Assembly: GCF_003019035.1 (NCBI RefSeq)
Contig: NZ_CP027447.1
DNA: 64,000 nt
Strand: one strand, 5' to 3'
From: Escherichia coli
GTDB taxonomy: Bacteria; Pseudomonadota; Gammaproteobacteria; Enterobacterales; Enterobacteriaceae
Below are positions 1,592 to 3,581 of this stretch, one piece after another (the stretch's first letter is position 1; each line of letters starts with the position of its first letter). Both the position numbers and the translations under genes were made by a program. A model generated the notes under the pieces. That model saw only the letters and a program-made list of their open reading frames with translations. It ran no database searches and was not told the DNA's origin.

Positions 1592-2590
1592 TCAGGCGTT
1601 GGCGTCTTTGACTTCGCGGATGATGTCCTGGTACTCGCGCAATTTCTGCGGAGTCATCATACGGCGCTGATCGTCAAGCACTACACCGCCCACTTCATCG
1701 GCAATATGCTGCGCAGATTGCAGCATCAGCTTGAAGTTCTGCAGCTCGTCACCGTAAGACGGTACCTGCATAAAGATAGTGACACCCGGAGTAGTGAAAT
1801 CCTTCATTTCAGGATCAAAGGTTCCCGGTTTCACCATATTCGCCAGGCTAAATAACGCCGGGCCGCTGCCATCCGGGCTAAGATGACGATGGTAAATATT
1901 CATATCGCCAAAAATGAAGCCCGCTTGTTGAATGCTGTTAAGAAGCAGTTCACCGTTTAGCTCGCTACCGTGATGCGCCGCGACGTTCATGATAATCACC
2001 GCTTCTTTGCGCTTCGGTTTATCCATAACTGGAGCCGGTTCCGCTACAGGCTCAGGCTGTGGTGCCGCTACAGGCTCTGCAGGCTGGAAAGCCTGTTGTG
2101 CCGGTTGCGGTGCTGAATGCACTGGCTGCGGCGCTGATGCGACCTGTGGCGAAACTGGCTGCTGCAACGGCTGTTCAGGCTGCGGCTGATAGGCAGGCTG
2201 CTGCACGGGTTGCTGCACCGGCTGCGCTGGACGCGGAGCATGTTGCGGCGGTACCTGAGCTTCAGGCGGCTGCTGGACCGGTTGACGCGGCTGCGCAGAC
2301 GCATAAGGCGGTTGGTACTGGTGTTGCGGCGACGGACGAGCAGCCTCATGCTCCTGGGCGTTAGCCGGGGCATGATTCACGCGGTGAACTCGAACCTCAC
2401 CAACGCCCTCATCATCTTCGACATCCTCGTCATAAGAATCGTCGTCACGTTTTGACTTCATTCGTTTTAATGGCCGATCGCGGAACATAGAAGATCGTTC
2501 TTTACGGCTGGTCCAGAAACCATGTACCAGTAAAGCGATTATGGCGATCGCGCCAACAATGATTAATATCAGACGCAAATCCTGCATCAT
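1592..2590 (-). CDS. zipA: Cell division protein ZipA
   Basis: ORF track 1592..2641(-) trimmed to the [26 protein letters not shown] start; N-terminal TM helix, P/Q-rich linker, C-terminal ...[10 protein letters not shown]. Confidence 0.9.
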
Positions 2591-2819
2591 TATATTCTCT
2601 GTTGTTCTAACACCTTGCCACCACGGCAAACATTTACTCACTAAGAGTATTTGCCGATTACCTCAAGTGCAAGTGCACTATTAACTTTCACAGCACAAAG
2701 ATAGATGAAATCGTGCTTTTTGCTGTTTTTTCGAACATATCCTAACTGTCCATTGCGCAATTACCCGGTAAAATACGCAGAATTTTCCTGGGATTGGTCA
2801 AAAGGAGCTCATCCTGATT

Positions 2820-3581
2820 ATGGTTTCATCATTCACATCTGCCCCACGCAGCGGTTTTTACTATTTTGCGCAAGGCTGGAAGCTCGTCTCGCAACCTGGG
2901 ATTCGGCGTTTCGTTATTTTACCGCTGCTGGTCAATATTTTGTTGATGGGGGGCGCATTCTGGTGGCTATTTACGCAGCTCGATGTCTGGATCCCGACGC
3001 TCATGAGTTATGTTCCGGACTGGTTACAATGGCTGAGCTATCTGTTGTGGCCTCTGGCTGTCATCTCTGTGCTGTTAGTGTTTGGCTATTTCTTCTCAAC
3101 GATTGCTAACTGGATTGCCGCTCCGTTCAATGGTTTATTGGCTGAACAACTGGAAGCACGATTGACTGGCGCTACACCGCCAGATACCGGGATTTTCGGT
3201 ATCATGAAAGATGTGCCGCGAATCATGAAACGCGAATGGCAAAAATTTGCCTGGTATCTGCCGCGCGCAATTGTATTGCTAATTCTTTACTTCATCCCTG
3301 GTATTGGGCAAACCGTCGCGCCGGTACTATGGTTCCTGTTTAGCGCCTGGATGTTAGCCATCCAGTATTGCGATTACCCCTTCGATAACCACAAAGTGCC
3401 GTTTAAAGAGATGCGCACCGCCCTGCGCACACGCAAAATCACCAATATGCAGTTTGGTGCTTTAACCAGCCTGTTTACGATGATCCCGTTGCTTAATCTG
3501 TTCATCATGCCCGTTGCCGTTTGTGGTGCGACGGCGATGTGGGTCGATTGCTATCGCGATAAACACGCGATGTGGCGGTAA
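2820..3581 (+). CDS. cysZ: Sulfate transporter CysZ
   Basis: 253-aa [34 protein letters not shown]..., polytopic membrane protein, position upstream of cysK. Confidence 0.9.

Follow-up and report, generated by a model that had tools for sequence, protein, structure and literature searches.

The zipA gene lies on the minus strand of the window, that is, the whole 64,000-nt stretch of Escherichia coli DNA that was analysed (contig NZ_CP027447.1). It is flanked by ligA (minus strand, start at 1521) and cysZ (plus strand, 2820-3581), in the same order as in MG1655. Translation from the ATGATG at 2590 gives a product running from MMQDLRL to KDANA, 332 aa in length, followed by the stop. The sole long open reading frame of this part of the minus strand covers 1592-2641, with zipA nested inside it. 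An in-frame GTG located 17 codons upstream of the zipA ATG (2591-2641, minus strand) extends the mechanical reading frame to 349 aa; the annotated start is the ATG of MMQDLRL. The features of the gene that are relevant here are the following.

1592-2590, minus strand: zipA coding sequence, 332 codons plus a TGA stop at 1592-1594
2507-2572, minus strand: N-terminal transmembrane anchor, residues 7-28 (limits from PMC6904479)
2336-2506, minus strand: charged domain, residues 29-85 (limits from PMC6904479), identical to K-12 at the protein level
2024-2335, minus strand: P/Q-rich linker, the tract flagged beforehand, residues 86-189 here and 86-185 in K-12
1595-2023, minus strand: C-terminal FtsZ-binding globular domain, residues 190-332, identical to K-12 at the protein level
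2210-2221, minus strand: PVQQ unit 1, coding strand CCGGTGCAGCAA
2198-2209, minus strand: PVQQ unit 2, coding strand CCCGTGCAGCAG; 12 nt are missing here in K-12

The identity of the gene as zipA is confirmed by family models, PDB chains, synteny and identity with the type strain. The product belongs to ZipA by the TIGR02205 septum_zipA equivalog model (416.5 bits against a cutoff of 119.65, residues 4-324), and the FtsZ-binding domain is recognized by Pfam PF04354 (ZipA_C) at residues 198-321 (E = 3.2e-46). The ZipA chains of PDB entries 1F46, 1F47 and 1F7W align with residues 189-332; these older structures comprise the C-terminal domain, and the chain sequence of 9iue is the full-length 328-aa ZipA, present in 18 chains. 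At the nucleotide level the gene agrees at 100% with zipA of ATCC 11775, the E. coli type strain; the protein corresponds exactly to the UniRef entry ZIPA_ECO45 and is found on at least 1000 contigs of a 15-billion-protein collection. ZIPA_ECO45, from E. coli O45:K1 strain S88 (332 aa), shows no difference from the window ZipA at the protein level. The gene, the P/Q tether and the exact 332-aa allele were thus already known from curated databases. Judging by the identity of the C-terminal domain with that of K-12 ZipA, the protein would be expected to bind the FtsZ C-terminal peptide and to be essential.

An Rfam scan of the whole window at gathering thresholds gave no matches, and a consensus promoter and terminator scan around zipA returned nothing relevant. 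A GC-rich hairpin of 9 bp (AACCCCCGC...GUCGGGGGUU) with a U run behind it lies at 1538-1563 on the minus strand, in the gap that separates zipA (stop at 1592) from ligA (start at 1521), upstream of the latter. This hairpin looks terminator-like and is present in the centroid fold; the z-score of the 71-nt stretch is unremarkable and the hairpin is absent from the output of the consensus terminator scan. Two 101-aa open reading frames run through the P/Q tract in other frames (2059-2364, plus strand, and 2068-2373, minus strand). Their low-complexity translations, rich in Ala, Leu and Arg, look like by-products of biased composition and not like genes.

The domain organization of K-12 ZipA, as given in PMC6904479 with reference to Ohashi et al. 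2002, comprises a transmembrane helix (residues 7-28), a charged domain (29-85), a P/Q domain (86-185) and a globular domain (186-328), the P/Q domain being described there as an unstructured, flexible tether. The same paper argues that this tether is more compact than a free coil, and a further paper, PMC8669495, has the globular domain, not the linker, as its subject. When these limits are transferred to the window, the P/Q domain maps to 2024-2335, in near coincidence with the region at 2020-2340 (approximately residues 84-191) that the sequence-only reading had assigned to the P/Q-rich linker of ZipA. This assignment was correct: P and Q make up 53% of residues 84-191 and 9% of the remaining protein. 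The GC-richness claimed for the tract was also found, at 64.8% over 2020-2340 (whole gene, 55%; window, 53%), and the 27-residue stretch quoted as an example of QPVQQP-type repetition is present in the translation.

A partition between constant domains and a variable linker is seen across genera. In 32 complete enterobacterial ZipA proteins, the portion up to the VHRVNHAP sequence comprises 75-77 residues and the C-terminal part 139-140 residues, while 19 different linker lengths occur, between 81 and 134 residues. Nearly all of the length variation therefore falls in the linker and the flanking domains are constant. The P+Q content is 49-60% in the linkers of the 30 enterobacterial homologues with full-size linkers. 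The ZipA linker of Intestinirhabdus alba includes a near-perfect run of about seven PQPVQQ or PQPAQQ hexapeptide units, a true repeat array, unlike that of E. coli. Disordered linkers of variable length are known in other division proteins, such as the C-terminal linker of FtsZ. The latter may be likened to the ZipA linker as a tether of low complexity that differs in length from taxon to taxon between folded domains that remain fixed, although it belongs to a different protein and has a different composition.

Alignment with the K-12 gene, which had been named as the check on a possible length variant, revealed differences in both length and sequence. The zipA gene of MG1655 (NC_000913, b2412) is annotated with 987 nt and 328 aa and has the same start as the window gene, so the lengths put forward earlier, 332 aa from MMQDLRL and 328 aa for K-12, are both right. 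A single in-frame indel of 12 nt and 12 SNPs separate the two genes. K-12 ZipA (ZIPA_ECOLI, b2412) resembles the window ZipA in its cysZ/ligA neighbours, its domain order, the whole C-terminal domain and residues 1-119, which are identical and include the membrane anchor and charged segment. It has one PVQQ unit fewer, together with R120H and S152P, the two non-synonymous changes among the 12 substitutions.

The coding strand at the indel reads CAG CCG GTG CAG CAA CCC GTG CAG CAG CCT in the window and CAG CCG GTG CAG CAG CCT in K-12. The two 12-nt PVQQ units of the window are identical at 10 of 12 bases, with two synonymous differences (CCG..CAA versus CCC..CAG), and share the 8-mer GTGCAGCA, which occurs at 2211-2218 and again at 2199-2206. 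Because of this 8-nt repeat, the indel has no unique position within 2199-2218: removal of any 12-nt frame in that interval, for instance gene nt 373-384, yields the K-12 sequence.

The distribution of both forms was estimated in 5,426 complete E. coli genomes. A whole-gene query was matched in 5,425 of them. One genome lacked any zipA match, another carried two zipA places, and two matches fell on plasmid-labelled records. Counting by BLAST identity bands rather than by extracted sequences, a 101-nt query across the indel gave 2,371 ungapped records (≥95% identity) and 3,042 with the 12-nt gap (80-90% identity), with partial coverage in 61 records and 10 unmatched genomes. A synthetic three-unit query gave 2,313 two-unit records, counted in the 80-90% band alone, since the 95-99% band (3,096 records) was inflated by joined one-unit pieces. 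The two-unit (332-aa) form thus accounts for about 43-44% of the 5,426 genomes and the one-unit K-12 form for about 56%. Carriers of two units include O157:H7 strains and JJ1887; carriers of one unit include MG1655, a BL21 derivative and an O6:H16 strain. Some 60-70 genomes lie outside the two main classes of the 101-nt query, and other alleles explain 57 of them. A three-unit allele of 336 aa was found in one of the 5,426 genomes, strain 700481 (NZ_CM129038.1, positions 271-1281 of the extracted locus). Its extra unit is a perfect copy of GTGCAGCAACCC, which indicates that the PVQQ site expands too.

The window allele is therefore one of two major E. coli forms, and it belongs to a longer series. 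A protein search returned E. coli clusters whose natural ZipA lengths span 295 to 375 aa; with few exceptions, the underlying changes are in-frame deletions or duplications of linker sequence. In the following list, positions are those of the window.

309 aa: 69-nt deletion between 9-nt GCGCAGCCG repeats at 2288-2296 and 2219-2227 (span 2219-2296, minus strand)
308 aa: 60-nt deletion at a 14-nt repeat, CCGGT[C/G]CAGCAGCC; 371 contigs, 3 complete genomes
300 aa: deletion between 12-nt GCAGCCNGTGCA repeats at 2214-2225 and 2118-2129, 96 nt apart (span 2118-2225, minus strand)
295 aa: 111-nt deletion between 8-nt CAGCAGCC repeats at 2268-2275 and 2157-2164 (span 2157-2275, minus strand)
314, 310, 305, 304, 303 and 301 aa: deletions; 1-29 contigs each among the clusters listed
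349 aa: duplication of a 17-residue unit; 19 and 5 contigs
351 aa: duplication; 1 contig
354 aa: a 13-residue unit present three times; two clusters, 1 contig each
355 aa: duplication; 2 contigs
375 aa: duplication of 43 residues; 1 contig

Short alleles were counted in complete genomes with 46-52-nt junction queries (E ≤ 1e-9); a 101-nt junction query for the 300-aa allele was unusable for this purpose because BLAST joined the pieces flanking the deletion in nearly every genome. The 309-aa allele, with 23 linker residues fewer, is carried by 22 complete genomes, and its protein (P0085) is found on 827 contigs; the junction, synthesised from the window sequence, matches at 100% in those 22 genomes. 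Its carriers include NZ_CP082775.1 (O25:H4 strain CU568-3), SaT040 and ZH063, and the allele has the look of a clonal marker for a sub-lineage of O25:H4. The 300-aa allele was counted on 484 contigs and in 30 complete genomes, which come from humans, cattle and beef and measure 5.36-5.61 Mb. Removal of 84 nt from K-12 zipA reproduces it as it stands in 99_0288 (368-1270 of the extracted locus) with 3 mismatches; it is 28 residues shorter than K-12 ZipA and its backbone lies 3 SNPs from K-12. The 295-aa allele, present in 1 complete genome and 23 contigs, is obtained by deleting nt 316-426 from the window gene, with 1 mismatch to zipA of strain EM10-18-28.

The expansion alleles of 349-375 aa (P0018-P0023 and P0027) carry, at the protein level, duplications or triplications of 13-43-residue linker segments and occur on 1-19 contigs each. 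The database proteins of 349 aa were considered as products of the upstream GTG, and this was ruled out, as they begin with MMQD and contain a real 17-residue linker duplication; the two lengths agree by coincidence, so that lengths alone can mislead. Two proteins vary outside the tract. P0026 (335 aa) has a duplication of EDV in the charged domain, and P0029 (348 aa), found on one ENA contig, has gained 16 hydrophobic residues directly behind the membrane anchor, perhaps through an artefact of assembly or a frameshift.

At the DNA level five junctions were checked, and all of them coincide with direct repeats of 8-14 nt. Deleting in silico between paired repeats yields the real 295-, 300-, 308- and 309-aa alleles with 0-3 mismatches. 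The sequence-only reading had attributed the length difference to repeat-driven polymorphism, and this was supported. The variation does involve a PVQQ unit at a short direct repeat, with one, two or three units in E. coli, and 18-nt units present two or three times in other Escherichia. In its DNA, however, the tract does not qualify as a tandem-repeat array: Tandem Repeats Finder, run over 1500-2700 with a minimum score of 30, returned no rows, and head-to-tail repetition is confined to the two adjacent 12-nt units, the others being dispersed direct repeats of 8-14 nt. The tract is thus better described as cryptic low-complexity repetition. The 324-nt linker contains 25 in-frame 8-mer direct-repeat pairs versus none in the remaining gene. 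When the codons of the linker were shuffled, the mean was 12.5 pairs, and 32 of 1000 shuffles reached 25. The observed count thus exceeds the shuffled mean by a factor of only about two, and P/Q codon bias by itself accounts for the larger part of the repeats.

These observations suggest a mechanism in which the biased codon content of the tract would create many short in-frame direct repeats, and these in turn would give rise to deletions and duplications. In the case of K-12, replication slippage or microhomology-mediated deletion between the GTGCAGCA repeats may have removed 12 nt and generated the one-unit allele. The zipA gene is essential, hence frameshifts would be removed, and the tether needs no fixed sequence; the changes that persist would for these reasons be in frame and of tolerable size, behaving as near-neutral lineage markers, a neutrality that is assumed here.

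The direction of the change was approached through the relatives of E. coli. A scan of contigs from one genome per species with a degenerate pattern yielded 31 loci, E. fergusonii not among them. In E. albertii and one other Escherichia lineage, the equivalent site has two copies of an 18-nt unit (CAGCCAGTGCAGCAA-CCG / CAGCCAGTACAGCAG-CCG), and another lineage has three; E. marmotae ZipA contains two QPVQQP units at the protein level. In E. albertii and the two lineages with two or three copies, the first unit ends in CAA and the last in CAG, an order shared by the two-unit form of E. coli. A further Escherichia lineage (L027) has a single unit that ends in CAA and not in CAG, which implies a separate, independent event and hence that the site is homoplasic. 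The ZipA proteins of the relatives (331 or 321 aa in E. albertii, 330 in E. marmotae, and 320, 321 and 326 in other lineages) conserve the flanking domains as in E. coli and have a QPVQQ-type repeat at the equivalent place of the linker. They differ in that their repeat is an 18-nt unit (QPVQQP) present two or three times, with additional indels downstream, whereas the units of E. coli are 12 nt apart.

Variation within E. coli points the same way. Four long alleles separated by 7-15 SNPs all have two units. At gene nt 909, K-12 shares a derived C with the long O157:H7 allele, A being the base in the outgroups and in the remaining long alleles, so the short form is nested among the long ones. 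Most likely, a two-unit form would have lost 12 nt between its 8-nt GTGCAGCA repeats and so given rise to K-12 zipA. This polarity is read from a few outgroup sequences aligned in low-complexity DNA, where recombination could blur it, and in principle the K-12 form could derive directly from an ancestral state of two 18-nt units instead of from the 332-aa form.

The opposite direction, with the one-unit 328-aa form as ancestral and the 332-aa form produced by a slippage duplication of PVQQ in the lineage of the type strain, O157:H7 and ST131, has some points in its favour. Slippage expansion is real at this site, as illustrated by the perfect extra copy in the 336-aa allele; the one-unit form is the majority (around 56%); and lineage L027 likewise has one unit. 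Nonetheless, the units of the long form differ at two of 12 bases, so a duplication would require two more substitutions, and the outgroups with two or three units display the same CAA-then-CAG order. Furthermore, long alleles occur on four divergent backbones within which the short allele is nested, and the CAA ending of the L027 unit marks it as an independent event. An expansion from a one-unit ancestor is accordingly regarded as improbable.

It can be imagined that the 295-375-aa tether series as a whole is non-neutral, altering the spacing between Z ring and membrane, division timing or cell size and so constituting a tunable trait, although this is a long shot. Similarly improbable is the proposal of lineage-specific selection, in which the 328-, 332-, 300- and 309-aa alleles tune the distance or dynamics between Z ring and membrane. 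Shortened alleles have indeed become fixed in sizeable clones (300 aa in 30 complete genomes; 309 aa in 22, O25:H4 included), and the confinement of the linker to 81-134 residues across genera speaks against free drift. Clonal hitch-hiking accounts for such fixation equally well, however, and a range of 295-375 aa inside one species argues in favour of a loose constraint, while four residues are a small change for a tether of about 100.

Finally, the view that the length difference is an artefact, caused by the choice of start codon or by sequencing or assembly errors in a GC-rich tract of low complexity, to which the in-frame upstream GTG and the frequency of assembly errors in such tracts might have lent some weight, has practically no probability left and was already refuted, given that both proteins were compared from one and the same annotated MMQDLRL start, that the 12 nt are internal to the gene, and that the same allele is found in more than 2,300 independently finished genomes and at least 1000 contigs.

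The preferred reading is that the window carries the 332-aa, two-unit allele of ZipA, that K-12 would have arrived at 328 aa by a repeat-mediated 12-nt deletion, and that both would belong to a wider, repeat-driven and near-neutral in-frame variation of the linker. A probability of about 0.88 is assigned to it. A limited literature search found no paper on natural variation in ZipA linker length; the allele itself is already catalogued, and the finding is real but ordinary, with little weight as a discovery.

For E. coli biology, the main consequence is that 328 aa is not the universal length of ZipA in this species, since the 332-aa protein is found in approximately 43-44% of finished genomes, next to rarer alleles that cover 295-375 aa. 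As ZipA lengths differ between strains, residue numbering shifts past position ~122. The catalogue of natural tether lengths is a mildly useful by-product, and the sole one: this natural allele series represents a ready set of tether lengths tolerated by an essential division protein, usable for questions about the anchoring of the Z ring.
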